Sequence record: OZ035809.1 | Direction: 5' to 3' (one strand) | Length of the DNA: 40,209 nucleotides | From: Kayfunavirus T147P5 | In this document: in pieces, positions 1,178-19,862 of the stretch | Layout: the number at the start of each line of letters is the position of its first letter | How positions within the stretch are numbered: the first letter of the stretch is position 1 | Made by a program: the position numbers and the translations under genes | The notes under the pieces: generated by a model | Database searches by the model: none | Told to the model about the DNA's origin: nothing | What the model saw: the letters and a program-made list of their open reading frames with translations, nothing else

Positions 1178-2936
1178 GAAAACACCTGCTGAAAGACAGG
1201 CAGAAATGACCCAAAGGATGAGGGATGACTTCGTGTTCTTCATATTCGTTCTATGGAAAGCTCTGAGCCTTCCTGTTCCAACACGCTGCCAGATAGATAT
1301 GTGTAAGAAGCTGGCGGCTGGAGATAATCGACGCTTCATCCTTCAAGCATTCCGTGGTATTGGAAAGTCGTTCCTGACCTGTGGTTTCGTGGTCTGGAAG
1401 TTATGGAATAACCCAGACTTGAAGTTCATGATTGTGTCGGCCTCAAAGGAACGAGCCGATGCGAACTCCATCTTCATCAAGCGTATCATCGACCTCATGC
1501 CTCAGCTTCAGGAACTCAAACCTAAACAGGGGCAGCGAGATGCGGTTATCAGCTTCGACGTGGGACCTGCCAAGCCAGACCACTCACCTTCGGTTAAGTC
1601 CGTTGGTATCACTGGTCAGTTGACTGGTAGTCGTGCTGACATCCTGATTGCCGATGACGTTGAGGTTCCGAACAACTCAGCGACTCAGGCTGCACGAGAC
1701 CGTCTATCAGAGCTTGTGAAAGAGTTCGACGCTATCCTGAAGCCGGGAGGTACGATCATCTATCTGGGTACTCCTCAGAACGAGATGACCCTGTACCGTG
1801 AGCTGGAAGGTCGTGGGTACACCACTACTATCTGGCCCGCTCGTTATCCACGCGACAGGAAGGACTGGCAGTCTTACGGCGACCGTCTGGCTCCTATGCT
1901 TCAGGCAGAGCTGGAAGAGGACCCTGAGTCCTTCTACTGGCGTCCGACTGATGAAGTACGCTTCGATGATACGGACCTGAAGGAACGTGAGCTGTCCTAC
2001 GGTAAAGCTGGATTCGCTCTACAGTTCATGCTTAACCCGAACCTGAGTGATGCCGAGAAGTACCCTCTGAAGCTCCGTGACCTTATCGTAGCCGACTTGG
2101 ACCCAGCGTCCAGCCCAATGGTCTACCAATGGTTGCCAAACCCTCAGAACAAGCGTGAGGACGTTCCTAACGTGGGACTCATGGGTGACTCGTACCACAC
2201 GTATCAGACTGTAGGTTCTGCCTTCAGTTCGTACACCCAGAAGATTCTGGTCATAGACCCTAGTGGTCGTGGTAAGGATGAAACTGGCTATGCGGTACTA
2301 TACCAGCTCAACGGCTATATCTTCGCTATGGAAGTTGGCGGTATGCGTGGTGGCTATGAAGACTCTACGCTGGAAGCCTTGGCTAAGATTGGTCGTAAGT
2401 GGAAGGTCAACGAGTACGTCATTGAGGGTAACTTCGGTGATGGTATGTACCTTGAGTTATTCAAGCCTGTAGCTGCCCGTATCCATCCTGCTGCTGTAAC
2501 TGAAGTGAAGAGTAAGGGTCAGAAAGAACTCCGCATCTGTGACGTTCTGGAGCCTATCATGGGGTCTCACCGACTTATCGTTAACGCTGCTGCTATAGTC
2601 CAAGACTACCAGTCTGCCTCTGATAAGGATGGTGTTCGTAACCCTATCTACTCTCTCTTCTACCAGATGACACGTATCTCTCGTGAACGTGGAGCCTTGG
2701 CACACGATGACCGACTTGATGCGCTGGCTATCGGTGTACAGTTCTTCGTTGAGTCTATGGCTAAGGATGCCAACAAAGGCGAACGTGAAGTCACTGAGGA
2801 GTGGCTGGAGGAACAGATGGAGAACCCACGGAAAGGCTTCGAGTCCATCCACACGGAGTTCTGGGACAATGGGGTCCGGGTAACTCACGATACGGACGAC
2901 GAGCTTGGACTAGGGTCCTACGTTACGTTCCACTAG
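1167..2936 (+). CDS. terminase large subunit (T7 gp19-like)
   Basis: 589 aa; long collinear similarity to T7 gp19 ([77 protein letters not shown]). Confidence 0.95.
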
Positions 2937-3030
2937 CTGAATGAATAACTATAGGCGAAAACTGAATTAATACGCGGTTAGTAACCTATAGTTACTACCA
3001 GTCTAACCTACTGTTTTACAAGGAGTTTGG

Positions 3031-3053
3031 ACTTAACTATCACTATAGGGAAG
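3031..3053 (+). promoter_or_regulatory. phage RNAP promoter (phiOR-like)
   Basis: ACTTAACTATCACTATAGGGAAG; matches the 11-copy consensus; +1 G about 3048; between gene 19 and gene 19.5 as in T7. Confidence 0.8.
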
Positions 3054-3232
3054 ACCCCCGGTTACTTATAGTATTACTGTAGTGAATATACATATGCAGA
3101 CTTTATGCAAGACCTTAGGAGGCAGACTCCGAGTTCTTACCTAAGGCTTGCACCGATGGAAGGAGGGTGATATTAATCATAATCCCTCCAATACAGATAG
3201 TAAAGACCATAGATACAGGAGGTATGTAGCAT

Positions 3233-3391
3233 ATGGCAAAGACCAAAGCTGTACTTAAAGCTCTGGCGACCAATCGAGCTACATACAGGTTTCTTGCTGC
3301 TGTTCTACTTGCTGCTGGCGTTACTGCTGGAAGTCAGTGGGTCGGGTGGGTCGAGACTCTCGTATGTTCTCTGGTCTCTCAGTGTAATTAA
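3233..3391 (+). CDS. gp19.5-like small protein
   Basis: Not in ORF track (52 aa); RBS AGGAGG 3216-3221; MAKTKAVLKALATNRATYRFLAAVLLAAG...LVCSLVSQCN resembles T7 gp19.5 (..RVTYRFLVVL...VVCSIL..); same position after gene 19. Confidence 0.6.
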   Translation: MAKTKAVLKALATNRATYRFLAAVLLAAGVTAGSQWVGWVETLVCSLVSQCN

Positions 3392-3460
3392 CGCAATCAT
3401 GGTAACGATTCATGAGCGGAAGACCTAAGGTCAGTACGTGGATAAAGACTCACTCTACTG

Positions 3461-3599
3461 ACCTTAGCTACTGTAGTCAAGGACTTTAGGTAACACCATT
3501 CAGGCTCTCACCTCTGGTCTACCTACTGATTGGTTCACTGGTCGTCATCCGATGGTCTTAGACCTACGGTCCTTGACCTACAGTAGCTGGTTCCTAAGG
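3461..3599. repeat. imperfect inverted repeat (about 24-bp arms, about 85-bp spacer) just left of the presumed terminal repeat
   Basis: Left arm ACCTTAGCTACTGTAGTCAAGGAC (3461-3484) vs right arm GTCCTTGACCTACAGTAGCTGGT (3569-3591), reverse-complementary with one indel and one mismatch. Confidence 0.5.
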
Positions 3600-3637
3600 A
3601 GGGACGATGAGTTTTGGACCAAAAGTTTGAGACCACA

Positions 3638-3826
3638 TCTCACAGTTCAAGAACCTCAAGTCTCCCCATAGGCCATCTTTCAGTCCAGACCAAAGGCCCT
3701 ACCCCAGTCTATCATAAGGTTAGACCGATGGTCAAGACTTCAGGTCAACGATAGGTTGTGGCTATGGCTTAGGGAAGGACGATAGGTAGGGACTATGGGT
3801 CTGTCTTTGAGTCTCTATCTGTATCA
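3638..3826. repeat. probable direct terminal repeat (single collapsed copy) containing the physical genome ends
   Basis: Begins TCTCACAGTTCAAGAACCTCAAGTCTCCCCATAGG, closely resembling the first bases of the T7 genome (recalled); 246 bp downstream of gene 19.5; end near CTATCTGTATCAG is approximate. Confidence 0.45.
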
Positions 3827-3910
3827 GACCATAAGTCACTAACCTACAGTCTCACTAACCTACAGTCTCAACCATAAGACACCAACACCTACAGTCATAG
3901 ACCTACAGTT
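3827..3910. repeat. short direct-repeat array (ACCTACAGT units)
   Basis: ACCTACAGT at 3842, 3858, 3887, 3901 with tandem 16-bp CTCACTAACCTACAGT x2; analogous to the CCTAAAG-type arrays after the T7 terminal repeat. Confidence 0.5.
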
Positions 3911-4020
3911 ACTAGACACAAAGCTATAGACTTAAGGTCTAAGACATGTTAGTCAAAGACTATATCCTCTTACACCATGGGGCCGACGATAGCTTAATCA
4001 ATATTATTTCAAATTACCTA

Positions 4021-4049
4021 TTGACTATAGGTCCAGACTATGGCCTAAT
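4021..4049 (+). promoter_or_regulatory. candidate host sigma70 early promoter (T7 A1-like)
   Basis: -35 TTGACT (4021-4026), 17-bp spacer, -10 CCTAAT/CTAATA (4044-4050); resembles T7 A1 architecture (TTGACT-17-GATACT). Confidence 0.45.
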
Positions 4050-4161
4050 AGCTTACGTCAACACGACACGGCAACAACCGGATAGTGAAGACGCCGGGTC
4101 ATCCCGGTTAAGTAGACAGCCTGATAAGTCATACGAAAAACAGGCAGATGACAGAAAGTAG

Positions 4162-4191
4162 TTGACAAGCAGTAACGATAAGATGTAAGCT
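4162..4191 (+). promoter_or_regulatory. A2/A3-like promoter remnant (TTGACA ... TAAGAT) with non-canonical spacing
   Basis: TTGACA 4162-4167 and TAAGAT 4179-4184 separated by only 11 bp; alternative -10 TAAGCT at 18 bp is weak. Confidence 0.25.
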
Positions 4192-4306
4192 GTACCACAT
4201 CGAAACAACGGTGACGACCGACACTGAAACGGTCTACCTGAAGTCCTCTGACTGAAGGGAATGCTCTTTAACAATCTGGATAAACTCTTAATGTGCGCCG
4301 ATAGCG

Positions 4307-4378
4307 ACTAACTACAGGGTCTTTGAGTCTACATCTGAAGGCCCTGGCTGATAGTCACTAACTTAACGGATGGACACT
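4307..4378 (+). promoter_or_regulatory. conserved early intergenic element E1 (probable RNA processing/regulatory site)
   Basis: GACTAACTACAGGG...GGCCCTGGCTGATAGTCACTAAC; diverged copy of E2/E3; immediately precedes first early ORF. Confidence 0.4.
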
Positions 4379-4624
4379 ATGAAACACTTAAGCACAATCA
4401 CTAATCACAATGAAGTATTCGTGAACACTAAAGGTTATGCGTGGATTCAGCTTAAAGAGATGAGAGGAGCGCGTCACCGTGTGGTAGTTCGCAAGGTATC
4501 AAGCAAGCCGTTCAGCAACTACAGCGTAGATATTGTGCGTATAGACAACGAGACTTACCTGATAGACTCGCAGATAACCGTGAGTCCTACAGCGGGCATC
4601 TCAGCTCCTTATTTCGCTAACTGA
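4370..4624 (+). CDS. hypothetical early protein
   Basis: 84-aa ORF; alternative start ATG 4379 fits the RBS spacing seen for E2/E3; first gene after the host-promoter region. Confidence 0.6.
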   Translation: MDTMKHLSTITNHNEVFVNTKGYAWIQLKEMRGARHRVVVRKVSSKPFSNYSVDIVRIDNETYLIDSQITVSPTAGISAPYFAN

Positions 4625-4627
4625 GAG

Positions 4628-4697
4628 TGATTAACTACAGGTCGTTAGAATCATAGCGGCCTGACTGATAGTCACTAGCAACCTAAGAGGATTCATT
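4628..4697 (+). promoter_or_regulatory. conserved early intergenic element E2
   Basis: TGATTAACTACAGGTCGTTAGAATCATAGCGGCCTGACTGATAGTCACTAGC; about 90 percent identical to E3; fills the intergenic gap; RBS AAGAGGA follows. Confidence 0.4.
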
Positions 4698-4976
4698 ATG
4701 AGACTGAACAAAGCTACAGCAGAAGCCTTCCGCAAGGAGCTTGAATCAAGATTATTGTGTGGAGTGGCGGAAGGAGCCGCTCGATATAAAGAGAATGGTC
4801 TAACGTTCAAGCGCTTTATGTGGGATTGCTATCACGGAGTGGGCCATAAAAAGTCGCAGGAAATAATCACCAGCAACAATGCGGAAGTGCAAGTGATAGG
4901 AGGATACATGGCTAACGTGAAGGATTCACACATAGAGACAATGCTTAAGAATGCACTTAAAGATGTAGCCTACTAG
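4698..4976 (+). CDS. hypothetical early protein
   Basis: 92-aa ORF with RBS AAGAGGA; no recognisable motif. Confidence 0.65.
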   Translation: MRLNKATAEAFRKELESRLLCGVAEGAARYKENGLTFKRFMWDCYHGVGHKKSQEIITSNNAEVQVIGGYMANVKDSHIETMLKNALKDVAY

Positions 4977-5046
4977 TGATTAACTACAGGTCGTTAGACT
5001 GATAGCGGCCTGACTGATAGTCACTAACAACTGAGAGGATATAACT
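4977..5046 (+). promoter_or_regulatory. conserved early intergenic element E3
   Basis: TGATTAACTACAGGTCGTTAGACTGATAGCGGCCTGACTGATAGTCACTAACAAC; contains short hairpin TGACT-GAT-AGTCA; precedes ocr-like gene. Confidence 0.4.
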
Positions 5047-5550
5047 ATGGAACGTAACGCTAACGCATACTATGAGCTGCTGGCTGCAACCGTTGAGGCA
5101 TTTATCGAGCGTATTCAGTACGACCACCTGACTCAAGATGATGACTACAGCGATGCGCTGCATGAGGTCGTAGACGGTCAGGTTCCACACTATTACCACG
5201 AGATTTTTACGGTGATGGCTGCTGATGGTATAGACCACGAGTTCGAAGACTCTGGGCTGATGCCTGAAACCAAGGACGTAACGCGTATACTACAAGCTCG
5301 CATCTATGAGGCGCTTTATAACGATGTGTCTAATAGCTTGGATGTAGTCTGGTTTGAGGCTGAAGAGGCAGACGAAGAGGATGAATATTGGGTAGTTGAC
5401 GCTAAAACAGGCGCAATAATTGTGCAAGCTGTAGCTCTTGAGGTCGCTACTGCATGTGCCAATGTCAACTATGCAACAGGTCGCCACCTGAAGGTGGAAG
5501 ACATCAATGATAACGTAGTGTTCGACCCTGCGGCTGAGGACTGCGAGTGA
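5047..5550 (+). CDS. ocr: Ocr-like DNA-mimic anti-restriction protein (T7 gp0.3-like) with about 54-aa C-terminal extension
   Basis: [43 protein letters not shown] nearly identical to T7 Ocr core; acidic stretch [10 protein letters not shown]; 167 aa versus 117 aa in T7. Confidence 0.8.
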
Positions 5551-5705
5551 TGGTAACTTATGGTATCTGCCAGCACCACGTCGCAAACGCCCGGCTTATG
5601 GTCAAGACCGGGCAATTAAACCACGATGCGACTATGCGTCACCTGAAAGCGGTCTATGAGGGCCGCAAGCGCATACACGACAGTTTGCACGCTGAGGATA
5701 AGTAA
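5550..5705 (+). CDS. small early protein at the position of T7 gene 0.4
   Basis: Not in ORF track (51 aa); ATG overlaps ocr stop (TGATG); ..TMRHLKAVYEGRKRI.. loosely resembles T7 gp0.4 as recalled. Confidence 0.45.
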   Translation: MVTYGICQHHVANARLMVKTGQLNHDATMRHLKAVYEGRKRIHDSLHAEDK

Positions 5706-5818
5706 CGTGTATCATAGCCTGACCATAACGCTGACAGGCGGGTACTGAGTGATAGACGAGAGGTCATCGACTGATAGGTGGCCTCAAAGATTACCACTTG
5801 AATTAATAGGAGTTAACT

Positions 5819-5908
5819 ATGAGTGTGGGATATTGGGTCTGCCTAGCGCCAGTTATCTGGATGATAGGCTATGGGTTATACGACTGTATTAAACGGAAAT
5901 CACTATGA
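5819..5908 (+). CDS. small hydrophobic peptide (29 aa)
   Basis: RBS AGGAG 5808-5812; MSVGYWVCLAPVIWMIGYGLYDCIKRKSL; stop overlaps next ATG. Confidence 0.3.
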   Translation: MSVGYWVCLAPVIWMIGYGLYDCIKRKSL

Positions 5909-6102
5909 GTCTTGCACTATTGATAGCCATAGGCTATGGACTTATCGCCTACGTGCTGATGAGAGACATCTACAAAGCGCGTAAAGTCTACAAATTCAAC
6001 TATGTACGTCTGGGCCGCTGGACTGTACGTCAACCTAACGGACGATTCATGCGCAACCTAGCGAACGTCTGGGATATAGCAACACTTGGGAGCAAACTGT
6101 AA
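5905..6102 (+). CDS. small membrane protein
   Basis: 65-aa ORF with N-terminal TM segment LALLIAIGYGLIAYVLM; translationally coupled to the flanking ORFs. Confidence 0.5.
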   Translation: MSLALLIAIGYGLIAYVLMRDIYKARKVYKFNYVRLGRWTVRQPNGRFMRNLANVWDIATLGSKL

Positions 6103-6428
6103 TGAACAAGTCATACGGGATTAATCTGGTACACTCTATGGACGCAGACATGCAAATGTTAAGCCTACTTGCTACCGGGTATCGTCACGGAACGTCAAGT
6201 CACACCGCACGTCAACAGCAGGAGCGGGACCGGGTACTGCAAGCAAGACTCCGGGCTGAGGGCCATAAGTCCGAGCTGATGTGTCTGGCGTATGGTGGAC
6301 GACCAATCACTGACGATGGTAAACTTTTAGTCTCAGGCTGGAAGGCGATAGACCAACGGTCAACCATCAAGCACACGACTCATGGTGACTTCAGTCATCT
6401 TCACGCTAACCCACTGATATGCAAGTGA
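6102..6428 (+). CDS. hypothetical early protein
   Basis: 108-aa ORF occupying the slot where T7 has gene 0.7; no kinase motifs. Confidence 0.6.
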   Translation: MNKSYGINLVHSMDADMQMLSLLATGYRHGTSSHTARQQQERDRVLQARLRAEGHKSELMCLAYGGRPITDDGKLLVSGWKAIDQRSTIKHTTHGDFSHLHANPLICK

Positions 6429-6433
6429 TTCTG

Positions 6434-6456
6434 ACTTAACTATCACTATAGGACTC
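6434..6456 (+). promoter_or_regulatory. phage RNAP promoter immediately upstream of the RNAP gene
   Basis: ACTTAACTATCACTATAGGACTC; full consensus match; leader 6457-6525 contains direct repeats (AAGTGAAAGAC x2, GACTTTAAGT x2). Confidence 0.75.
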
Positions 6457-6525
6457 AAGGTCTAAGACTCCAAGTGAAAGACCAAAGAGACTTTAAGTGA
6501 AAGACTAATAACAAGGACTTTAAGT

Positions 6526-9207
6526 ATGAGCGTCATCTCTATTGACAAACACGACTTCTCTGATGTGTCGAACGCCATTGAGCCGTTTAACCTGCTGGCT
6601 GACCACTACGGGCAAGACCTTGCAGTCAAACAGCTTCAGCTTGAGCATGAGGCATACACTGAAGGCGAGCGACGTTTCATCAAGAACCTTGAGCGGCAGA
6701 CTGAGCGAGGGGAACTGGCAGACAATCAGGTCGCCAAGCCTTTGATGCAGACTCTGGTTCCTAAGATTGCGCAAGCCGTCAAGGAGTGGCATGAAGGTCC
6801 AGACGGGAAGCTGTCAACCTCTCGTCCGAGCGTAGCGTTCACCATGTTAAGCACTGAAGAGAAGGCCGTCAAGGACCGCTCTCTTCGCATCTCCTGCGAG
6901 TCTGCTGCGGTTATCATACTGAAGGTCATCCTCTCCAAGCTGGTCAAGCCTGAAGGTATACCGATTACACCGATGGCCTCCGCGATAGGTCGCACACTTG
7001 AGGATGAAATCCGATTCGGTCGCATTCGTGACAAGGAGAAGGAGCACTTCAAGAAGGCAATAGCTGATAACCTGAACAAGAGAGCCGGGGCATCATACAA
7101 GAAAGCCTACATGCAAGCGGTCGAGACATCCATGCTGGAGCAAGGCCAACTAGAAGATGCGTGGGGAACTTGGAGTCCGACCGAGGCTGTCCACGTTGGA
7201 ATCAAGATGCTGGAGATTGTCATCCAGTCAACACAACTGGTCGAGCTTAAGCGTTATGGTGCTGGCAATGCAGCGGCTGACGTTGAGATGGTCCACCTGT
7301 CAGACTTCTGGGTCAAGAAGATGGCACAACGCGGCTTCAGCCTTGCGGGCATCGCTCCAGTCTACCAACCTTGCGTAGTTCCACCTAAGCCGTGGACTGG
7401 TGTCGTAGGCGGTGGGTACTGGGCCAAAGGTCGCAGACCATTACCACTGATTCGCTTAGGGTCTAAGTCTGCGGTGGCACGTTACGAAGACGTGTATATG
7501 CCTGAAGTCTATGACGCTGTTAACATCATCCAGAATACACCTTGGAAAGTGAACAAGAAGGTTCTGGACGTGGTGAACATGGTCGAGAAGTTGAACAACA
7601 CGCCTATTGATGACATCCCTCAGATGGAGCCACTGAAGCCTGAAGAATATGCGGGTGAGACTGAAGAGGAACTCAAGGCGTGGAAGAAAGCGGCTGCTGG
7701 TATCTATCGCCGCGAGAAGGCCAGACAGTCACGCAGGTTGTCGCTGAGCTTTATCGTTAACCAAGCGAACAAGTTCTCTCAGTTCAAGGCCATCTGGTTC
7801 CCGTATAACATGGACTGGCGCGGTCGCGTCTACGCTGTGCCGATGTTCAACCCTCAGGGTAACGACATGCAAAAGGGTCTCCTGACTCTGGCAGTCGGTA
7901 AGCCTATTGGTGCTGATGGTTTCAAATGGCTGAAGGTCCACGGTGCAAACTGTGCGGGTGTCGATAAAGTCACCTTCGAGGAGCGCATCAAGTGGGTGGA
8001 AGATAACCACGACAACATCATGGCTACCGCTAAGGCACCGATGGACAGCATTGAGTGGTGGGGTAAGTTAGACTCTCCGTTCTGCTTCCTAGCGTTCTGC
8101 TTCGAGTATGCTGGCGTAATGCACCACGGTTTGTCTTACTCCTGCTCGCTGCCGATAGCTTTCGATGGGTCCTGCTCTGGGATTCAGCACTTCAGCGCGA
8201 TGCTTCGTGATCACATCGGTGGACATGCAGTAAACCTGACGCCTTCCGGTAAGGTCCAAGACATCTACCGCATCGTGTCTGACCGCATTGAGGAGGAGCT
8301 TAAAGTCCTGCTGGTTAATGGCACGGACAACGAGGGGGTCACTAACGAGGATAAGAAAACTGGCGAGATTACCGAACGTATCAAGCTGGGGACACGAGAG
8401 CTGGCCCGCCAGTGGCTGACTTACGGTATGTCACGCAAGGTTACTAAGCGCTCAGTCATGACTCTGGCCTATGGGTCGAAAGAGTACGGCTTTGCAGACC
8501 AAGTTTACGAGGACATCGTGATGCCAGCGATTGACTCAGGGTCTGGCGCTATGTTCACTGAACCAAGCCAAGCGTCTCGCTTCATGGCTAAGATGATTTG
8601 GGAAGCTGTGAGTGTGACCGTAGTTGCTGCAGTTGACGCGATGAAGTGGCTTCAAGGTGCTGCCAAGCTGCTGGCGGCTGAAGTGAAGGACAAGAAGACT
8701 GGAGAAATCCTGAAGCCTTGCCTTCCGGTACACTGGGTCACACCTGATGGGTTCCCGGTCTGGCAGGAATACCGCAAGAAGGATACCACTCGTCTGAACC
8801 TGATGTTCTTAGGGTCATTCAACCTTCAGCCTACCGTCAACAAAGGCACGAAGAAGGAGTTGGATAAGCACAAGCAGGAGTCAGGAATTAGCCCGAACTT
8901 CGTCCACTCACAAGATGGTAGCCATCTCCGCAAGACTGTAGTCCACACTCACCGCAAGTATGGCGTGATGTCATTCGCAGTGATTCACGATAGCTTCGGG
9001 ACCATCCCGGCTGACGCTGAGTATCTGTTCCGGGGTGTCCGTGAGACGATGGTCGAGACCTACCGCGACAACGATGTGCTGCTTGACTTCTACGAGCAGT
9101 TTGAATACCAACTTCATGAGAGCCAGCGCGACAAGTTGCCTGAGCTTCCGAAGAAAGGTAAACTGAATATTGAGGACATTCTATCTTCAGACTTTGCATT
9201 CGCTTAA
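6526..9207 (+). CDS. DNA-directed RNA polymerase, single-subunit (T7 gp1-like)
   Basis: 893 aa; collinear with T7 RNAP (DFSD...PFN.LADHYG, FQPCVVPPKPWTG, WFPYNMDWRGRVYAV, FCFLAFCFEYAG, HDSFGT, C-terminal FAFA). Confidence 0.97.
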   Translation: MSVISIDKHDFSDVSNAIEPFNLLADHYGQDLAVKQLQLEHEAYTEGERRFIKNLERQTERGELADNQVAKPLMQTLVPKIAQAVKEWHEGPDGKLSTSRPSVAFTMLSTEEKAVKDRSLRISCESAAVIILKVILSKLVKPEGIPITPMASAIGRTLEDEIRFGRIRDKEKEHFKKAIADNLNKRAGASYKKAYMQAVETSMLEQGQLEDAWGTWSPTEAVHVGIKMLEIVIQSTQLVELKRYGAGNAAADVEMVHLSDFWVKKMAQRGFSLAGIAPVYQPCVVPPKPWTGVVGGGYWAKGRRPLPLIRLGSKSAVARYEDVYMPEVYDAVNIIQNTPWKVNKKVLDVVNMVEKLNNTPIDDIPQMEPLKPEEYAGETEEELKAWKKAAAGIYRREKARQSRRLSLSFIVNQANKFSQFKAIWFPYNMDWRGRVYAVPMFNPQGNDMQKGLLTLAVGKPIGADGFKWLKVHGANCAGVDKVTFEERIKWVEDNHDNIMATAKAPMDSIEWWGKLDSPFCFLAFCFEYAGVMHHGLSYSCSLPIAFDGSCSGIQHFSAMLRDHIGGHAVNLTPSGKVQDIYRIVSDRIEEELKVLLVNGTDNEGVTNEDKKTGEITERIKLGTRELARQWLTYGMSRKVTKRSVMTLAYGSKEYGFADQVYEDIVMPAIDSGSGAMFTEPSQASRFMAKMIWEAVSVTVVAAVDAMKWLQGAAKLLAAEVKDKKTGEILKPCLPVHWVTPDGFPVWQEYRKKDTTRLNLMFLGSFNLQPTVNKGTKKELDKHKQESGISPNFVHSQDGSHLRKTVVHTHRKYGVMSFAVIHDSFGTIPADAEYLFRGVRETMVETYRDNDVLLDFYEQFEYQLHESQRDKLPELPKKGKLNIEDILSSDFAFA

Positions 9208-9223
9208 TAACAGGAGAGACAAC

Positions 9224-9424
9224 ATGCAATTCGAACACCGTGTATCAAACGTACCTGGTGGTAACAAGGTCGTAACAGTAACAATGGCGGCTGGCAAGGG
9301 TCTATTCAAAGTTACTATGGTCCCGACTGGAACGGCTAAGGCCAAAGGTATCAGCCAGAAGGAGCTGATTCAGGTAATCCAGTGGTCGCACGAGAAGGCC
9401 CTACGGGAAGAGGCAACCAAATGA
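9224..9424 (+). CDS. hypothetical protein
   Basis: RBS CAGGAGAG 9211-9218, ATG 9224; 66 aa; the ORF-track start at 9170 overlaps the RNAP 3' end and lacks RBS. Confidence 0.5.
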   Translation: MQFEHRVSNVPGGNKVVTVTMAAGKGLFKVTMVPTGTAKAKGISQKELIQVIQWSHEKALREEATK

Positions 9425-9500
9425 CAGACCTACAGTTACTGGCCATGTGGCTGGGAGCACTAGCAGTATTCACTTTAATCCAACGCAGAAGAGGTTAACC

Positions 9501-9523
9501 CTAAACTATCACTATAGGATTAG
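9501..9523 (+). promoter_or_regulatory. phage RNAP promoter (phi1.1-like)
   Basis: CTAAACTATCACTATAGGATTAG; +1 about 9518. Confidence 0.8.
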
Positions 9524-9565
9524 ACTAAAGGTCATGACTCAAAGTCGTGGCCTTCATGATTAACC
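9519..9565 (+). promoter_or_regulatory. RNase III-site-like hairpin (analogous position to T7 R1.1)
   Basis: Same inner stem AAGGUCA(9528-9534)/UGGCCUU(9548-9554) as the elements at 296 and 16436. Confidence 0.45.
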
Positions 9566-9595
9566 CTAAATAAACACTACTGGAGATTTAACCGT

Positions 9596-9775
9596 ATGTA
9601 TCAGAACACTATCAACTTCGAGCGCATCCGTGAACGTCAGCAGACTGAAGGTTACATCCCGAAGGGCCGCAAGCTGAACAAGACCAAGCGTGGCGGTGGT
9701 ATCAAAGGCGCTTTCCGAAACGCTGAAGGTAAAGACTCTCTGGTCAACCAAGAGAAATACTTCGTAGGAGCATAA
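9596..9775 (+). CDS. gp1.1-like small basic protein
   Basis: Not in ORF track (59 aa); RBS GGAG 9582-9585; ..KGRKLNKTKRGGG.. resembles T7 gp1.1 (KGRKLNKTKR). Confidence 0.55.
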   Translation: MYQNTINFERIRERQQTEGYIPKGRKLNKTKRGGGIKGAFRNAEGKDSLVNQEKYFVGA

Positions 9776-9779
9776 CTCT

Positions 9780-10043
9780 ATGGGCCGACTTTATAGTGGC
9801 AACCTCAACGCTTTCAGAGCAGCGTGTAACAGGCTTTATCAGTTAGACTTCGCTGTTATATCTCAGGAGTTTCAAGACCATACGTCACGCCAAGAGTGCA
9901 TGAAACTCAGGGTGGAGGACCGAGCTGGTAACATCTTCGCGCTTGAGACCTTCGCACACTACGATGAAGACGTGCTGTATAATACTGCAACAGACTACCT
10001 CAACGGTCTCGCTGACCAACTCGACACATGGAGCAAAGCATAA
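9780..10043 (+). CDS. gp1.2-like protein (dGTPase inhibitor family)
   Basis: 87 aa; MGRLYSGNLNAF.AA.N.L.QLD.AVI...RL.EDR.GN...T.HDEDVL.N..TD.LN closely resembles T7 gp1.2. Confidence 0.8.
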   Translation: MGRLYSGNLNAFRAACNRLYQLDFAVISQEFQDHTSRQECMKLRVEDRAGNIFALETFAHYDEDVLYNTATDYLNGLADQLDTWSKA

Positions 10044-11125
10044 TGACAACTATCAAAACTAACCCGCACCGCGCTGTAGATTACTCTGAGTCTGGCATTA
10101 AAAAGGCACTGGAAGCAGCCGGGTCTCTGGAAGCTGAAGTGAAGTACGATGGTGTCCGGTTGAACCTTCCGGTGCTGCGAGAAGGTGAGACATACTGGTT
10201 AAGCCGTGAGTCTAAACCGCTGCCAGCACTGGAGTGGATGAACTCTGAGTTAGGGAATGCGTGGACTCAAGCTGACTGGCGATGGTTCCTGCGTCAAGCT
10301 GGATACGAAGGCGTAGGCCTGATGATTGACGGAGAGGTAATGGTCAAAGGTGTTGACTTCAACACATCATCGGGTCTCATCCGAACGAAGTGGCTGAAGC
10401 CTAGCAACGAGGAGTTCGCTGAATGCTATCCGGGACGTGGCAAGAAGGTCCCGTTCTGGGTAGCCAGGTCACGACTCAAGGTTGTGGTCTACGGCGTCGT
10501 AGATATGACAACCATTGCTGACCCGAAAGCCGAAGGTCCTATCCATAGCGTCACACGCCTGAAGGCCGAAGCTATCGTCCCTCTCCTCCAGAAATACTTC
10601 CCGGAAATCTACTGGGTTCTGTCTGAGTCACACACGGTCTATGACCTTGAGTCGCTCAACTCCCTGTACGAACAGAAGCGTCTGGAAGGACATGAGGGTC
10701 TGGTAGTCAAGGACCCACTAGGTAAGTACAAGCGTGGCAAGAAGTCTGGCATGTGGAAAATGAAGCCTGAGGAGACCATCGACGGGACCGTGTGTGGCCT
10801 CGTGTGGGGGACTCCTGGTAAGGCTAACGAAGGTAAGGTCATCGGCTTTGAGGTTCTACTGGAGGATGGCATGGTGGTCAACGCCTGTGGTCTGACTGAA
10901 GAACAGAAGGACGAGTTTACGGCTAAGGTCAAGGAGGACACGCTTGCTGCGGTTGGCATCTTTGAGCCGTACGGCATTGGTGGTAACGAACCTTGCTTCA
11001 ATAACCCATACGAAGGCTGGCAGTGTGAAGTCCTCTTCATGGAGAGGTTCCCTGATGGCTCCCTTCGTCACCCCAGCTTCAAGTGCTGGCGTGGAACCGA
11101 AGACAACCCAACGGTGAAGTCATGA
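10043..11125 (+). CDS. ATP-dependent DNA ligase (T7 gp1.3-like)
   Basis: Start chosen at ATG 10043 (TAATG overlap with gp1.2) to match T7 N-terminus (MTTIKTNP..); adenylation motif EVKYDGVR; EGHEGLVVKDP; KSGMWKMKPE; SLRHPSF. Confidence 0.9.
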   Translation: MTTIKTNPHRAVDYSESGIKKALEAAGSLEAEVKYDGVRLNLPVLREGETYWLSRESKPLPALEWMNSELGNAWTQADWRWFLRQAGYEGVGLMIDGEVMVKGVDFNTSSGLIRTKWLKPSNEEFAECYPGRGKKVPFWVARSRLKVVVYGVVDMTTIADPKAEGPIHSVTRLKAEAIVPLLQKYFPEIYWVLSESHTVYDLESLNSLYEQKRLEGHEGLVVKDPLGKYKRGKKSGMWKMKPEETIDGTVCGLVWGTPGKANEGKVIGFEVLLEDGMVVNACGLTEEQKDEFTAKVKEDTLAAVGIFEPYGIGGNEPCFNNPYEGWQCEVLFMERFPDGSLRHPSFKCWRGTEDNPTVKS

Positions 11126-11301
11126 GTACACAACTTTATATCAACATAGCAAGTGGTCAACTCTACGCTGTGGTAAATGGCGAGCTGTGGTATCGTAAAC
11201 TCAAGAAGTGGGCCAAGTCCTACTACGATGAAGAGACAATATCAACCATGAGTCATCGCTACCGTAAGGCTGCTAAGGTGAACAACTTTAAGATGCGTTA
11301 A
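11122..11301 (+). CDS. hypothetical small protein (gene 1.4/1.5 position)
   Basis: ATG 11122 overlaps ligase stop (ATGA); 59 aa. Confidence 0.5.
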   Translation: MSTQLYINIASGQLYAVVNGELWYRKLKKWAKSYYDEETISTMSHRYRKAAKVNNFKMR

Positions 11302-12076: not shown

Positions 12077-12175
12077 ATGGAAAAGCCGAGTGAGTGGTGC
12101 GAGCATAAATTTGAGGAGACAGGTAACGTCGATTACCTTCAGCTCTACAACTTATGGAAGGAGCGTGGTCTATGA
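12077..12175 (+). CDS. small protein (32 aa)
   Basis: [32 protein letters not shown]; stop overlaps gp2 ATG (ATGA). Confidence 0.3.
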
Positions 12176-12330
12176 CTGACGTAGAGAAGAAATACATCGT
12201 GGAGCTTGAGGGTCGCGTTCAGTCCTTCGAGGTTCCGATGTATGCAAGGTCTCTTGAAGAGGCTACCCTGAAGTCCCAAGAGTATGAGGACGCTGGGTTT
12301 GTGGTCGGACGGATTCGTCCTGAGCCCTAA
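12172..12330 (+). CDS. gp2-like inhibitor of host RNA polymerase
   Basis: Not in ORF track (52 aa); [14 protein letters not shown]......[10 protein letters not shown] matches T7 gp2 core (SFEVPIYAETLDEA...AGFEVTRVRP). Confidence 0.7.
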
Positions 12331-16435: not shown

Positions 16436-16481
16436 GTCTAGACTCAAGGTCATTCACATCGAGTGGCCTTTATGATTAGAC
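16436..16481 (+). promoter_or_regulatory. RNase III-site-like hairpin (analogous to T7 R4.7 region)
   Basis: Inner stem AAGGUCA(16446-16452)/UGGCCUU(16464-16470) identical to the copy at 296; outer stem GUCUA/UAGAC differs but stays complementary. Confidence 0.5.
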
Positions 16482-16498
16482 TAAACGGAGGATTAACC

Positions 16499-16900
16499 AT
16501 GTTTGATTGCATTGAGTGGACCGGGTGTCGAGATAGTTTCGGCTATGGTATGCGAAAGGTCAACGGGAAGGTCCGTAGACTACATCTGATAGCCTTCGAG
16601 GAGGCGAATGGTCAGATACCAGAGGGAATGGTCGTGAGGCACAAATGCGACAACCCTGCATGCTACAATCCAGAACACTTGGAGCTGGGGACACGGGCTG
16701 AGAACAATCACGATAGAGATGTTAGAGGTAGAACCGCTAAAGGCGTGAGACATGGAAGCTCTAAGCTTACACCTGAAATAATACAAGAGGCCAAGATGCT
16801 TTACTCAGGAGGTGGCTGGACTCACCGCTCCTTAGGTAAGAAGTATGGAGTGGGTCACCGCACACTGGCTAGAGCAATTGGAGGAGAAACATGGACTTAA
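16499..16900 (+). CDS. HNH homing endonuclease with C-terminal helix-turn-helix
   Basis: Start chosen at ATG 16499 (RBS GGAGGA 16486-16491); VVRHKCDNPACYNPEHLELGTRAENNHDR; paralogous to 22094 and 33145. Confidence 0.8.
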   Translation: MFDCIEWTGCRDSFGYGMRKVNGKVRRLHLIAFEEANGQIPEGMVVRHKCDNPACYNPEHLELGTRAENNHDRDVRGRTAKGVRHGSSKLTPEIIQEAKMLYSGGGWTHRSLGKKYGVGHRTLARAIGGETWT

Positions 16901-19059
16901 GTAACGTATATGGGTCTGATATCGAGACCAACGGTCTCCTTGACACCGTGTCCCAGTTCCATTGTGGGGTCCTGATTAATGCCGAGTCGAATGAGACCCT
17001 TAAGTATGGGGTAGCGCCGATGGTCGGTATCGTCGGTGGCTTCAAAGAGTATGTACAGAAGGTGGAAGAAATTGCTGCAACGCCTACGGGTATGCTTGTC
17101 TTCCATAACGGTATCAACTATGACGTCCCGGCTATTGACAAGCTGAAGCGTTTGTACTTTGGGAAACGATTTAACTTCCCGAAACACAAGATGATTGATA
17201 CCTTGGTGCTGGGCCGCTTGATGTATCCAAACATTAAGTTCTCAGACATGGGCGCAGTGAAAGCTGGTCGTCTGCCCCCTCAGATGATGGGACGACAGTC
17301 TCTTGAGGCTTGGGGCTATCGTCTCGGTGAGATGAAAGGTGAGTACAAACACGATTACGTTGCCAAGTGCAAGGCTGAAGGTATCGAATATAAGGCTGGG
17401 GACGAATGGTTGTTCCCGTCTCAGGAGATGCTGGACTATAACGTTCAAGACGTTGTGGTCACACTGGCGTTGTTCAAGAAGTTCCTGACTGACAAGTATT
17501 ACTTCCAGTCTGAACAGTTCGCTTTCGACCAGATTTATGCGTTGCGTCTGGAACATGATGCTGCGTGGACCTGTGCGAAGATGGAACGTAACGGCTATCC
17601 GATGAACACCGAGATGGTCGAAGGCTTATATCGTGAACTCACCGTCAAACGTGCAGAGCTGCTGGACAAGCTGCGTTCGACTTTCGGTAGCTGGTATGCA
17701 CCGAAGGGAGGCAAGGAGTTCTTCAAGCACCCACGTACAGGCAAGGACCTTCCTAAGTATCCGCGAGTCGTGTATCCTAAGGTCGGTGGCATCTTTAAGA
17801 AGCCGAAGAACAAAGCTCAACGATTAGGTCTTGAGCCTTGCGAGTTCGACTCACGAGACACGATGGAAGGAGCACCATTCACGCCAATAACTTACGTTGA
17901 GTTTAATCCGGGAAGCGGAGACCACTTAGCGAAAGTTCTGATGGAGCGTGGTTGGGAGCCTGTGGACTTCACTGACACCGGGAAACCTGTAGTTGATGAC
18001 GAGACGTTGGAACACGTTAAGTTACCAGACGCAGAGGCTCAGGCTTGCGTAGAGCTGGTCCGTGAGTATCTGGTGGTCCAGAAGCGCATCGGTCAGGCTG
18101 CTGAAGGTAAGAACGCATGGTTGAAACTTGTAGGTCCAGACGGACGTATGCACGGTTCAATCAACCCATGTGGTGCAGTAACCGGACGTGCGACCCATAG
18201 TTCACCAAACATGGCTCAGGTACCGGCTAACGGTGCTCCGTATGGTGAGACTTGCCGTGGTGCTTTTGGTGCAGCGTGGAACAAGAAGGACGGTAAACCA
18301 GACCCTTGGATTCAAGTAGGTGTGGATGCTTCGGGTCTTGAGCTTCGTTGTCTGGGGAATCGAGCGGCTCCGTTTGATGGTGGAGACTATGCGAAGACTG
18401 TGGTCGAAGGTGACATCCACTGGGCCAACGCAGTCAACGCTGGGTTAGCACCTACCGTTCCACGCGATAAGTCGAACCACGACCACGATGCTTTCCGTAA
18501 TAACGCCAAGACGTTCATCTATGCGTTCCTGTATGGTGCAGGGGCCGCGAAGATTGGACTTATAGTTGGAGGTGGTAAGAAGGAAGGTGCGGCCCTGATG
18601 AAGAAATTCATTGAGGGCACACCAGCTATCAAGGACCTGCGAGAGGCTGTGCAGAACACGCTCATCTCAGAGTCGAAGTGGGTAGATGGTGAGAACATCG
18701 TGAAGTGGAAACGTCGCTGGCTGAAAGGTCTGGATGGTCGCCGCATTCACATCCGGTCGCCACACTCAGCACTTAACGCTCTACTTCAGGGTGATGGTGC
18801 GGTTGTCTGTAAGCACTGGATGGTACTGACTGAGAAGAAACTTGAAGAGGCTGGTTACGGTAACGGATGGGACGGTGACTTTGCGCTAATGGCTTGGATT
18901 CACGATGAATTGCAGATAGCGTGCCGTACTCAGGAGATAGCAGAAGATGTCGTCCGTATTGCTCAAGAGGCGATGCGCGAGGTCGGACGCTTCTATAACT
19001 TCAAGTGTGAACTTGATACGGAGGGTAAGATTGGACCAACGTGGAAAGAGTGTCATTGA
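16891..19059 (+). CDS. DNA polymerase (T7 gp5-like, family A)
   Basis: 722 aa; exo motif SDIETNGLL; pol motifs GKPWIQ.G.DASGLELR, RDNAKTFIYAFLYGAG, HDELQ; collinear with T7 gp5. Confidence 0.95.
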   Translation: MDLSNVYGSDIETNGLLDTVSQFHCGVLINAESNETLKYGVAPMVGIVGGFKEYVQKVEEIAATPTGMLVFHNGINYDVPAIDKLKRLYFGKRFNFPKHKMIDTLVLGRLMYPNIKFSDMGAVKAGRLPPQMMGRQSLEAWGYRLGEMKGEYKHDYVAKCKAEGIEYKAGDEWLFPSQEMLDYNVQDVVVTLALFKKFLTDKYYFQSEQFAFDQIYALRLEHDAAWTCAKMERNGYPMNTEMVEGLYRELTVKRAELLDKLRSTFGSWYAPKGGKEFFKHPRTGKDLPKYPRVVYPKVGGIFKKPKNKAQRLGLEPCEFDSRDTMEGAPFTPITYVEFNPGSGDHLAKVLMERGWEPVDFTDTGKPVVDDETLEHVKLPDAEAQACVELVREYLVVQKRIGQAAEGKNAWLKLVGPDGRMHGSINPCGAVTGRATHSSPNMAQVPANGAPYGETCRGAFGAAWNKKDGKPDPWIQVGVDASGLELRCLGNRAAPFDGGDYAKTVVEGDIHWANAVNAGLAPTVPRDKSNHDHDAFRNNAKTFIYAFLYGAGAAKIGLIVGGGKKEGAALMKKFIEGTPAIKDLREAVQNTLISESKWVDGENIVKWKRRWLKGLDGRRIHIRSPHSALNALLQGDGAVVCKHWMVLTEKKLEEAGYGNGWDGDFALMAWIHDELQIACRTQEIAEDVVRIAQEAMREVGRFYNFKCELDTEGKIGPTWKECH

Positions 19060-19090
19060 CCATCGAACCCAGACCCTACGCTTCCATACC

Positions 19091-19366
19091 ATGCCTACCG
19101 GATGTATCGTCTGCGTGTCCCACAAGAGGAACCAAGATGGGTACTTCCGGTACTCCATGGGAAGCTACAGGAAGGGCAACAAGTTCGCCTTCATGTTCCA
19201 CCGATGGGTGTGGGAGCAGAAGCGCGGACCTATACCAAATGGCTACGAGATAGACCATTTATGCTTGAACCGTGGGTGCTGCAACATAGAGCATCTACAG
19301 TGTATTCCAAAACGCGAACACGTCATTAAGACGAACCGTGAGCGCAAACTTGTTAAGAAGGAGTAA
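19091..19366 (+). CDS. HNH endonuclease (T7 gene 5.3 position)
   Basis: Frame open from within the DNAP 3' end; first ATG after DNAP stop at 19091 (no obvious RBS); GYEIDHLCLNRGCCNIEHLQCIPKREH. Confidence 0.6.
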   Translation: MPTGCIVCVSHKRNQDGYFRYSMGSYRKGNKFAFMFHRWVWEQKRGPIPNGYEIDHLCLNRGCCNIEHLQCIPKREHVIKTNRERKLVKKE

Positions 19367-19371
19367 CCACA

Positions 19372-19656
19372 ATGGCTATGACCAAACGTATGCGAGTAAG
19401 TTTTGACCTGAAGATGGTTGTTAGCTCAAAGGAAGAAGAGACCATGTGTTGCCAACTAGCTGAGCTTACTAAAGCCTACGCTGGTGGTGAGAAGCTGGAC
19501 GGACTTCAGTTGGCTATGGTCAAAGCAGCTATTGAGTTAGGACCTGAGTCTGCTCTTGAGCTGGCACTGAAGAAGGCCCTCAAGGAGGTGATTGTGGAGG
19601 GGTTCGATGGAGACCAGTTCAATGTCTCCAACTTCCGCTTCGAGGTGAAACGATGA
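19372..19656 (+). CDS. gp5.5-like protein
   Basis: 94 aa; N-terminus MAMTKRMRVSFD resembles T7 gp5.5 (MAMTKKFKVSFD); position between DNAP and gp5.7. Confidence 0.65.
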   Translation: MAMTKRMRVSFDLKMVVSSKEEETMCCQLAELTKAYAGGEKLDGLQLAMVKAAIELGPESALELALKKALKEVIVEGFDGDQFNVSNFRFEVKR

Positions 19657-19862
19657 GTGAATACTTACGGGTCCTAGCGGCCCTTAAGTCCTGCCCGAAG
19701 ACCTTCCAGTCCAACTATGTGCGCAACAACGCTGCACTTGTGGCTGAGGCTGCGAGTCGTGGACATCTAAGCTGCCTGTCTATGGATGGGCGTAACAACG
19801 GTGCGTGGGAGATTACAGCTGCTGGCACCAAATTCCTGAACCAACACGGAGGATGCCTGTGA
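19653..19862 (+). CDS. gp5.7-like protein
   Basis: 69 aa; LKSCPKTFQSNYVRNNAALVAEAASRGHLSCL...NGAWEITAAGTKFL almost identical to T7 gp5.7. Confidence 0.85.
   Translation: MSEYLRVLAALKSCPKTFQSNYVRNNAALVAEAASRGHLSCLSMDGRNNGAWEITAAGTKFLNQHGGCL

Follow-up and report, generated by a model that had tools for sequence, protein, structure and literature searches.

The genes between ocr and the RNA polymerase gene of this phage are best explained as ordinary Kayfunavirus early genes, which are neighbours of a protein kinase in some relatives rather than substitutes for it, in a genome that has probably retained host shut-off through gp2 and gp5.7; we put the probability of this reading as a whole at roughly 0.8. 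The arrangement is an ordinary one, already visible in public annotations, and is not new. On nucleotide similarity and gene order, the window (the whole stretch of 40,209 nucleotides analyzed here) is identified as a circularly permuted genome of a Kayfunavirus (K1F-like, Studiervirinae): its early region shows 91-96% DNA identity to records classified as Kayfunavirus, and about 95% to deposited phages with which it shares gene order, while the T7-like gene order extends genome-wide. This assignment is drawn from early-region identity and gene order and is made at the level of the genus.

Absence of a kinase from the window

An earlier note on this DNA had reported four ORFs in place of a gp0.7-type kinase, and this description was borne out. 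Open reading frames of 51, 29, 65, and 108 aa follow ocr (5047-5550) and precede the RNA polymerase gene (6526-9207), and their start and stop positions, including the overlapping start/stop codons, were read directly from the sequence. The length and position of each are kept in relatives, and comparison with these relatives gave pN/pS values of 0.32 (51-aa), 0.25 (29-aa), 0.33 (65-aa), and 0.23 (108-aa). Given this conservation and the range of 0.23-0.33, which indicates purifying selection on all four, the ORFs are taken to be more than chance occurrences.

Using T7 gp0.7 and the Kayfunavirus-type kinase of phage GW1 as tblastn queries, the best matches in the whole window had E-values of 2.9 and 0.22, respectively, and a kinase HMM built from the T7, T3, and GW1 proteins reached at best an E-value of 0.49 on all 435 six-frame segments. 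The profile searches of the four ORFs that had been proposed as a check returned matches to phrog_5058, phrog_2385, and phrog_7066, and none of the four matched a PHROG kinase (PHROGs 2828, 15752, and 18305, with a DPV motif and a domain of about 220 aa). All large + strand ORFs could be assigned to a T7 homologue, an HNH domain, or a tailspike, and the unassigned ORFs in the window are all too short to hold a kinase domain. Pfam scans covering the four ORFs together with every unassigned one likewise detected no kinase, but are uninformative: the Pfam copy used recognises neither T7 gp0.7 nor T7 gp0.4, and its negative results were discarded, so that the absence rests on the PHROGs, tblastn, and the custom HMM. 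By these measures a gp0.7-type kinase is undetectable anywhere in the window; both a kinase fold in the 108-aa ORF and a kinase elsewhere in the genome were looked for, and neither was found.

Early genes, hairpin, and promoter

The interval 5550-6428 is best read as the portion of the early (class I) gene block that lies farthest from the promoter, in the order of a gp0.4-family peptide coupled to ocr, a hairpin, a translationally coupled trio (29-aa, gp0.6, and 108-aa), a phage promoter, and gene 1. A simple scan of positions 2900-6600 revealed no strong sigma-70 promoter (7 found, 5.4 expected), and we therefore infer only by analogy with T7 and T3 that the host RNA polymerase transcribes the interval from its left end. 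By the same analogy, the early transcript would probably be processed at RNase III hairpins, including one within the interval. The four proteins are most simply viewed as non-essential host-takeover or accessory proteins; no PADLOC match was obtained for five proteins of the early region, and no Rfam family was detected in 2900-6700. All features of the interval and its two boundaries lie on the + strand.

The left boundary is an ocr (gene 0.3) homologue of 167 aa (5047..5550; Pfam ocr 3.5e-30, phrog_2568 3.4e-54), with 64% identity to T7 gp0.3 and a T7-like Ocr core followed by a C-terminal extension of about 55 aa that is found in some relatives and missing from others. Its stop codon overlaps the ATG of the 51-aa ORF (5550..5705; TGATG), which an ORF lister instead reports as 52 aa from a GTG at 5547. 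This ORF belongs to the T7 gp0.4 family (Pfam Phage_T7_GP04, PF26807): it matches phrog_5058 at 5e-28 and cross-matches phrog_7202 and phrog_25044, the same three PHROGs matched by T7 gp0.4; tblastn of T7 gp0.4 places it as the best site in the window (E 0.011, 37% identity over 41 residues); and PF26807 is recorded for an identical protein encoded on a second contig (L043). Its length of about 50 aa and its overlapping start directly after gene 0.3 also fit the family, T7 gene 0.4 similarly beginning at the last base of gene 0.3. Profile similarity and position thus identify the 51-aa ORF as a distant homologue of T7 gp0.4, a member of the FtsZ-inhibitor family. T7 gp0.4 prevents assembly of the Z ring by binding to FtsZ (Kiro et al., 2013, as cited in PMC9372555), and infection by K1F, like that by T7, leads to mislocalised FtsZ, no responsible gene being named in that study (PMC9372555). 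The homologue would most likely block FtsZ ring formation, but with only 37% identity to T7 gp0.4 the binding of FtsZ may not be conserved.

Downstream of this gene lies a deletion scar (5710..5748), detected by tblastn: the final 12 codons, with the stop (..YHSLTITLTGGY*), of a 41-aa ORF (phrog_33188), of which 10 of 12 residues are identical to the GW1 protein (E 0.005). The 41-aa ORF is intact in EPr2, GW1, and many other loci, and in GW1-type phages it is followed by a 115-aa HTH gene and then by the kinase. The scar adjoins a putative T3/T7-type RNase III-like processing hairpin at the position of site R0.5 (5745..5800), with a lower stem, an asymmetric internal loop, and an upper stem AGGUC...GGCCU (-18.9 kcal/mol, z -3.4). 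It has the irregular form of roughly 50-60 nt, with two stems and an asymmetric loop, that is typical of the early intergenic RNase III sites of T7 and T3; its architecture and motifs match the annotated T3 sites R0.3, R0.5, and R1; and three paralogous hairpins precede the genes at 4370, 4698, and 5047. Among 13 relatives 99.1% of cells are paired, as opposed to 29-48% in slid controls, with one compensatory pair. The hairpin is probably a cut site for host RNase III. Where kinase-bearing relatives have their kinase, the present genome holds this small deletion scar and the hairpin.

The trio begins with a 29-aa single-pass membrane peptide (5819..5908), preceded by a strong ribosome-binding site (AGGAG 8 nt upstream). 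In 16 relatives it is always 29 codons long, with 14 distinct proteins and a pN/pS of 0.25 at a pS of 0.57, and it has no family in Pfam, PHROGs, or PADLOC; membrane ORFs of 41, 55, or 81 aa take its place in other relatives. Its stop overlaps the ATG of the 65-aa ORF (5905..6102; ATGA), and the coupled and hydrophobic character that the earlier note had ascribed to the pair is evident, with one hydrophobic N-terminal segment each (maximum Kyte-Doolittle over 19 residues 1.47 for the 29-aa and 2.19 for the 65-aa protein). The 65-aa protein, with an N-terminal transmembrane helix, a basic tail, and a pI of 10.7, shares 41% identity with T3 gp0.6 in BLASTP (E 1e-10), and phrog_2385 matches both (9.4e-32 and 9.1e-30, respectively). 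It also has the size, the N-terminal hydrophobic helix, and the MRD...TVR..NGRF motifs of T3-type gp0.6, and the K1F annotation names the corresponding gene "0.6"; we accordingly assign it to T3-type gp0.6 on similarity and motifs.

The stop of the 65-aa ORF overlaps in turn the ATG of the 108-aa ORF (6102..6428; TAATG), which immediately precedes gene 1 in each of the 32 loci examined. It belongs to phrog_7066 (3.3e-46), a family nearly restricted to the genus that includes gp0.38 of EcoDS1, and alignments reveal the family core ERD.VL..R..AEG...AYGG.P..DGKLL...QR..I.HT..GDFSHL. The protein is basic (pI 9.3); its N-terminus varies, its core has three helices, and its C-terminal tail, T-x-x-GDF-x-HL, is invariant. 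The AlphaFold2 model of the full length was poor (pLDDT 63.6) and that of the core alone better (78.9), predicting a three-helix bundle of about 55 residues rather than a kinase fold; together with the lack of PHROG, tblastn, and HMM similarity, this agrees with the earlier remark that the ORF contains no kinase motifs. A sequence search of solved structures gave no match. Kinship with T3 gp0.65 was rejected (3.9 bits), as was zinc binding, suggested by His and Cys residues, since distant members of the family do not always have His101 and Cys107. The K1F copy of the gene contains an in-frame stop and frameshifted copies occur elsewhere; the gene may be dispensable at least in some isolates, or these records may hold sequencing errors. 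Going by architecture and conservation, the protein would most likely serve as an adaptor whose invariant tail engages a host partner.

Between the 108-aa gene and gene 1 stands a phage-RNA-polymerase promoter (gacttaactaTCACTATAGGact, 6433..6455), the right end of the cassette. The TCACTATAGG core has nine exact + strand occurrences, and allowing one mismatch gives 14 matches vs. 2.6 expected; the flanks at 6433..6455 agree with the promoter consensus of the genome. Kayfunavirus relatives conserve the promoter before gene 1, one subgroup having a CACTAAAGG variant. Gene 1 itself (6526..9207), the right boundary, encodes a single-subunit RNA polymerase with 62% identity to T7 gp1 over 883 aa.

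The kinase as an accessory gene

Among relatives, GW1 and ST37, together with eight distinct loci, encode a 244-aa kinase (phrog_15752, 4.5e-114), whose gene directly precedes the small membrane ORF, followed by the gp0.6-like and 108-aa genes. The same order is published for Enterobacter phage B1 (PMC12785254). GenBank holds 42 records with this kinase at an identity of at least 80%, and 221 records with the 108-aa gene; some 19% of deposited phage genomes with the 108-aa gene, nearly all of them Kayfunavirus, carry a short T7K-type kinase, so that about four in five Kayfunavirus phages are without the T7 protein kinase, like the present one. The kinase-positive loci examined all have a SAMase-type gene 0.3 and in no case ocr or gp0.4, and the genomes with ocr and gp0.4, including the present one, lack the kinase. 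In two ocr-type loci (L024 and L029) the 41-aa and 115-aa genes are followed directly by the 29-aa ORF, the kinase being precisely missing. The kinase is thus best described, from these gene contents, as an accessory gene that varies between genomes of the genus; either its loss from genomes of the ocr type or its gain by those of the SAMase type would fit the pattern of presence and absence taken alone.

Two details concern the source records. The kinase given in the literature as JSS1_004 was rejected as a product of KX689784, being a full-length gp0.7 homologue without correspondence to the early genes annotated there; that record (Escherichia phage JSS1, Kayfunavirus PE31) has 65- and 130-aa genes and no kinase. 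The literature covered, which did not include the K1F genome paper, gave no explicit statement that gene 0.7 is missing from K1F, and for K1F the claim draws on GenBank annotations.

The gp0.6-like and 108-aa genes adjoin gene 1 in nearly every relative examined, and several roles can be envisaged for this pair. It might constitute a Kayfunavirus-specific host-takeover or anti-defence module, in which the tail of the 108-aa protein docks onto a host nucleic-acid-handling or defence protein and supplies, independently of phosphorylation, what the shut-off domain gives T7K in other T7-like genera; we regard this as speculative and unlikely. Also unlikely is the proposal that the pair substitutes functionally for the shut-off (DNA-binding) domain at the C-terminus of T7K and is kept with or without the kinase. 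The 244-aa kinase ends about 20 residues past the DPV motif and comprises a kinase domain only, the pair lies just downstream of it, where T7 has the shut-off domain, and both proteins are basic. However, the 108-aa family compared with an alignment of seven shut-off domains gave a profile-profile probability of 0.2% (hhalign) and 3.1 bits (hmmsearch), which led us to reject the 108-aa protein as a T7K shut-off domain; that alignment was built from phage records, a search with the T7 shut-off domain having given only eight close proteins. Nor are there PHROG cross-matches, one of the pair is membrane-anchored, and T3 combines a gp0.6 homologue with a full-length kinase that has the shut-off domain, so that gp0.6 at least is no substitute.

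The earlier note went further: in its view the kinase slot has passed to small membrane ORFs and the 108-aa protein, and the shut-off strategy likely differs from that of T7. These genes do sit between ocr and gene 1, the place of gp0.7 in T7, and the 108-aa protein is basic and of no known function. Yet kinase-bearing Kayfunaviruses such as GW1, ST37, and B1 (PMC12785254) have the kinase upstream of the same 64/65-aa and 108-aa genes, in the same order beside gene 1, and this co-occurrence largely refutes the takeover. T7 itself has genes 0.4, 0.5, and 0.6A/B between ocr and 0.7, and T3 has 0.6 and 0.65; in T7 and T3, homologues of the 51- and 65-aa genes thus occur alongside a kinase. The claim of a different shut-off strategy is overstated, since a gp2 homologue (host RNA polymerase inhibitor; 12169..12321, + strand) was identified by tblastn of T7 gp2 (44% identity, E 1.3e-9) and is annotated as host RNA polymerase inhibitor in the closest relative, and a homologue of gp5.7, likewise a T7 host-RNA-polymerase inhibitor, lies at 19653-19859; a gp5.5 homologue is present as well. 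We consider takeover of the slot very improbable. The notion that the 108-aa ORF is a degenerate or divergent gp0.7-type kinase fragment, or that a kinase lies elsewhere in the genome, can be dismissed at the available sensitivity, as it is favoured only by the position of the ORF beside gene 1 and is contradicted by the lack of similarity to T7, T3, or Kayfunavirus kinases (tblastn, HMM, PHROGs), the small helical fold predicted, the purifying selection on a family that coexists with an intact kinase in relatives, and the shortness of the unassigned ORFs.

We therefore return to the small genes as companions of the kinase: because kinase-bearing relatives keep the same 65-aa and 108-aa genes, these accompany it and do not replace it. 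As gp2 and gp5.7 homologues are present, the main T7-type shut-off of host transcription is probably retained, and the real difference from T7 is more likely to lie in the anti-defence repertoire than in shut-off. In the form in which it was posed, the finding is of little consequence: that K1F-type phages lack gene 0.7, and how their genes are ordered, is evident in over 200 deposited genomes, K1F (2005) being the first. Of greater use is the natural contrast between kinase-positive (SAMase-type) and kinase-negative (ocr and gp0.4-type) genomes with an otherwise common early region, which makes the value of the kinase testable, as the T7 kinase (T7K) is now seen as a broad anti-defence weapon, recent work assigning it mainly such a role (PMC13645617). 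The 108-aa family provides a compact, conserved candidate for a host-interacting protein, in a genus widely used in phage therapy of E. coli, Salmonella, and Enterobacter.

Comparison with other T7-like phages

The closest arrangement is that of K1F and other Kayfunavirus genomes such as LM33_P1, vB_EcoP-22664UKE3-2, and EPr2, which share the order of ocr, a 49-51-aa gp0.4-like gene, variable small ORFs, 0.6 (65 aa), the 108-aa family, the phage promoter, and gene 1. Like the window, to which they show 91-96% DNA identity, K1F-type genomes have no gene 0.7 annotated. The differences are as follows: LM33_P1 and 22664UKE3-2 have a 75-aa Cys-rich ORF that the window lacks, EPr2 has the intact 41-aa ORF of which the window keeps only the 12-codon remnant, and K1F has a 55-aa membrane ORF where the window has the 29-aa ORF, in addition to the in-frame stop in its 108-family gene. 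In the kinase-bearing Kayfunaviruses (Cronobacter phages GW1 and Dev2, Shigella phage SFPH2, Enterobacter phage B1, and Salmonella phage ST37) the right half is the same as in the window, with a small membrane ORF, a 64-aa gp0.6-like gene, a 108-aa gene (88-89% identical), the promoter, and gene 1, whereas the left half differs, with a SAMase for ocr, no gp0.4-like gene, and the 244-aa kinase, often preceded by the 115-aa HTH gene.

In T7, as in the window, a gp0.4-family gene comes directly after ocr and is followed by the gene of a small membrane peptide (in T7, the 47-aa gp0.5), which is coupled to its downstream neighbour; RNase III sites lie between blocks, and gene 1 is last. Unlike the window, T7 encodes the 359-aa gp0.7, comprising a kinase and a shut-off domain; its gp0.6A is unrelated to the 65-aa protein, and it has no member of the 108-aa family. 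T3 (0.3 SAMase, 0.6, 0.65, 0.7, 1) has a gp0.6 of 65 aa homologous to the 65-aa ORF, and its RNase III sites have architecture and sequence motifs in common with the window's hairpins, but it carries a full-length kinase, and its gp0.65 does not significantly resemble the 108-aa family. Upstream of gene 1, T7 has the E. coli promoter C and the window a phage promoter; that Kayfunavirus gene 1 is preceded by a phage promoter, in place of the host promoter and RNase III site found there in T7 and T3, is a modestly useful point.

A kinase-less early region in a complete Kayfunavirus genome

The window, 40.2 kb long, comprises an entire T7-like genome in circularly permuted form; the terminase large subunit gene (1167-2936) is followed, near 2950-3050, by the genome ends together with the first phage promoter, and then by the early genes. 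A tblastn search with all T7 proteins recovered 40 homologues in T7 order. By megablast, 5000-6600 matched 240 phage records. At the top are records of about 95% identity that are assigned to the K1F-like genus Kayfunavirus (Studiervirinae); these Kayfunavirus records hold the same set of genes from ocr to the RNA polymerase, annotated as 'hypothetical protein'.

Between ocr (5047-5550, 167 aa, Pfam ocr 3.5e-30) and gene 1 (6526-9207), all four short ORFs described in the earlier note are present: 51 aa (5550-5705, its ATG overlapping the ocr stop), 29 aa (5819-5908, with an AGGAG ribosome-binding site), 65 aa (5905-6102, joined to the 29-aa ORF by an ATGA overlap) and 108 aa (6102-6428, joined to the 65-aa ORF by a TAATG overlap). 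Their low pN/pS (0.32, 0.25, 0.33 and 0.23, respectively), together with a frame, length and position that are constant among relatives, shows them to be genes rather than chance ORFs. The hydrophobic character ascribed to the 29- and 65-aa products was also seen, as one N-terminal segment in each. In the window's Ocr, about 55 aa are added at the C-terminus (residues ~113-167, ending FDPAAEDCE); this extension includes a hydrophobic stretch of 19 residues and is missing in T7 Ocr as well as in some Kayfunaviruses (Ocr is 110 aa in KX689784).

That the window lacks a gp0.7-type kinase was upheld by tblastn, a custom HMM and PHROGs. Six-frame searches with T7 gp0.7 (best E 2.9) and with the Kayfunavirus-type kinase (best E 0.22) gave no match in the window, nor did an HMM of the T7, T3 and GW1 kinases that was applied, with every filter disabled, to 435 six-frame segments (best E 0.49). 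PHROGs, which is able to detect these kinases, was used for the profile searches proposed earlier and returned none among the four ORFs; Pfam negatives were given no weight because the copy used misses T7 gp0.7 and gp0.4 altogether. Neither a kinase fold in the 108-aa ORF nor a kinase gene elsewhere in the window was found. ORFs with no homologue in T7 encode three further HNH endonucleases, an ASCH/DUF3850 protein and the tailspike, apart from a few that are short; none could accommodate a kinase domain. The four HNH homing-endonuclease ORFs lie at 355-759, 16463-16900, 18947-19366 and 33145-33594, one of them separating genes 15 and 16 and another at the end of the DNA polymerase gene. Three match Pfam HNH_3 (4e-14 to 3e-19); the first is similar to T7 gp3.8. 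The ASCH/DUF3850 protein (27135-27362, 75 aa, 1.5e-19) is encoded between tail tubular genes 11 and 12, where T7 has no gene.

Distribution of the kinase within the genus

Homologues of gp0.7 do occur inside Kayfunavirus. Cronobacter phage GW1 has the order SAMase, 67 aa, 41 aa, 115-aa HTH protein, 244-aa kinase, 64-aa gp0.6-like, 108 aa and gene 1, while Salmonella phage ST37 has a SAMase-kinase fusion (an in-frame ORF of 309 aa), a 41-aa membrane ORF, a 64-aa gene, a 108-aa gene and gene 1. This kinase (phrog_15752, 4.5e-114) aligns to T7 gp0.7 residues 27-219 and stops shortly past the DPV motif, and is therefore without the shut-off domain.

Mapping 16 marker proteins on 32 loci (the window, 9 loci and 22 IMG/VR contigs) placed the kinase in eight distinct loci (L009, L010, L025, L031-L033, L035 and L040). 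Each of these has SAMase, with neither ocr nor the gp0.4-like gene, whereas kinase-negative loci have the gp0.4-like gene, mostly with ocr. Within Kayfunavirus the kinase is strictly linked to a SAMase-type gene 0.3, and ocr with gp0.4 to its absence, which looks like two alternative left-arm cassettes on a common right arm (gp0.6-like gene, 108-aa gene and gene 1). The 108-aa gene adjoins gene 1 in 32/32 loci, and the gp0.6-like gene is found in all but one. In GenBank the kinase is found at >=80% identity in 42 records against 221 for the 108-aa gene, or about 19%; the same gene order appears in the published gene table of Enterobacter phage B1 (PMC12785254).

Two ocr-type loci (L024 and L029) have the 41-aa and 115-aa genes followed by the 29-aa ORF, the kinase being precisely absent. 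In the window, 113 bases separate the gp0.4-like gene from the 29-aa ORF, and within them 5710-5748 encodes the last 12 residues and stop of GW1's 41-aa ORF preceding the kinase block (10/12 residues identical), a deletion scar. The proposal that the small ORFs occupy the kinase slot was not borne out: since the 64/65- and 108-aa genes adjoin the kinase in relatives, they are its neighbours, not its replacement. The kinase-less arrangement is typical of the genus and has been visible in public annotations since K1F, and is therefore already known.

A search by name could mislead here: the GenBank record of 'Escherichia phage JSS1' (L008, KX689784, Kayfunavirus PE31) lacks a kinase in the interval from ocr to gene 1, and does not fit the JSS1_004 kinase of the literature, a full-length gp0.7 homologue.

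Family membership of the four early proteins

The 51-aa protein is a member of the T7 gp0.4 family: the two match the same three PHROGs reciprocally, the ORF is the best tblastn match of T7 gp0.4 in the window (37% identity over 41 residues), and an identical protein on a metagenomic contig has a recorded match to Pfam PF26807 Phage_T7_GP04. As in T7, the gene begins at the last base of gene 0.3. T7 gp0.4 inhibits FtsZ, and FtsZ rings are also disturbed in K1F infection (PMC9372555). The 65-aa protein is a T3-type gp0.6 (41% identity, BLASTP E 1e-10, both in phrog_2385), and the K1F authors named its gene 0.6. The 29-aa peptide falls in no family and parallels T7 gp0.5 in position and type; it has exactly 29 codons in 16 relatives, others having a membrane ORF of 41, 55 or 81 aa in its place.

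The 108-aa protein is a member of phrog_7066 with 144 close homologues, almost all of them from ~40-kb contigs. When 1.84 billion representative proteins were searched exhaustively by profile, only 14 clusters emerged, and even the most distant members have a gp0.6-like gene on one side and, on the other, gene 1 of a T7-like phage. A variable N-terminus yields forms of 83-86, 108 and 130-139 aa; the core is predicted as three helices (pLDDT above 90), and the sole invariant motif, T-x-x-GDF-x-HL, lies in the low-confidence tail that follows. Comparison with solved structures by sequence and fold gave no match, and BFVD none outside the family. Kinship with the kinase or its shut-off domain was rejected on sequence and profile comparison. 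The unannotated K1F copy (L005/L041, 2208-2566) has an in-frame stop (MKTVYINRPSIR*QCRAIQRD...), either a true pseudogene, making the gene dispensable, or an old sequencing error; two metagenomic copies (P0128 and P0132) are frameshifted. A joint role of gp0.6 and the 108-aa protein as a takeover or anti-defence module specific to the genus, with the invariant C-terminal tail as its means of action, seems improbable.

Host takeover and early transcription

The earlier note was right in its observation and only partly so in its interpretation, namely a host shut-off strategy unlike that of T7. This is less likely given that homologues of gp2 (12169-12321), gp5.5 and gp5.7 are present; in T7, inhibition of host RNA polymerase is mainly the work of gp2, and gp0.7 is non-essential. 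T7 gp0.7 has been described as a hyper-promiscuous anti-defence kinase with a DNA-binding C-terminal domain (PMC13645617; PMC12345140). For these reasons, lack of the kinase is more likely to narrow the anti-defence repertoire than to change the shut-off strategy. The Ser+Thr+Tyr fraction is 0.147 in early proteins (3946-11301) against 0.126 in T7, and 0.165 against 0.156 in late proteins, a difference that, in a small sample with crude gene calls, agrees weakly with the early-protein depletion reported for kinase-bearing phages.

Four paralogous hairpins (4296-4362, 4616-4682, 4972-5034 and 5745-5800; z -2.9 to -5.2), each of two stems with an internal loop, lie upstream of early genes, three of them preceding genes at 4370, 4698 and 5047. 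All four are very similar to the annotated T3 RNase III sites, and Rfam holds no family for them. The one at 5745-5800 (z -3.4) resembles the T3 sites R0.3, R0.5 and R1 in architecture and sequence. Relatives keep it: 99.1% of cells are paired, and one pair is compensatory. The early transcript would be processed here, leaving the 29-, 65- and 108-aa genes as one translationally coupled unit.

A promoter with the phage-polymerase consensus (gacttaactaTCACTATAGGact) lies within 6433-6525, immediately before gene 1; the Kayfunavirus relatives checked keep it, one subgroup as a CACTAAAGG variant. The 70-nt gene 1 leader is almost invariant, repeats AAGTGAAAGAC and GACTTTAAGT twice each, and has no stable fold (z -0.72). 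Such a promoter suggests that the phage polymerase may transcribe its own gene, whereas in its place T7 and T3 have the E. coli promoter C, and T3 also the annotated RNase III site R1.
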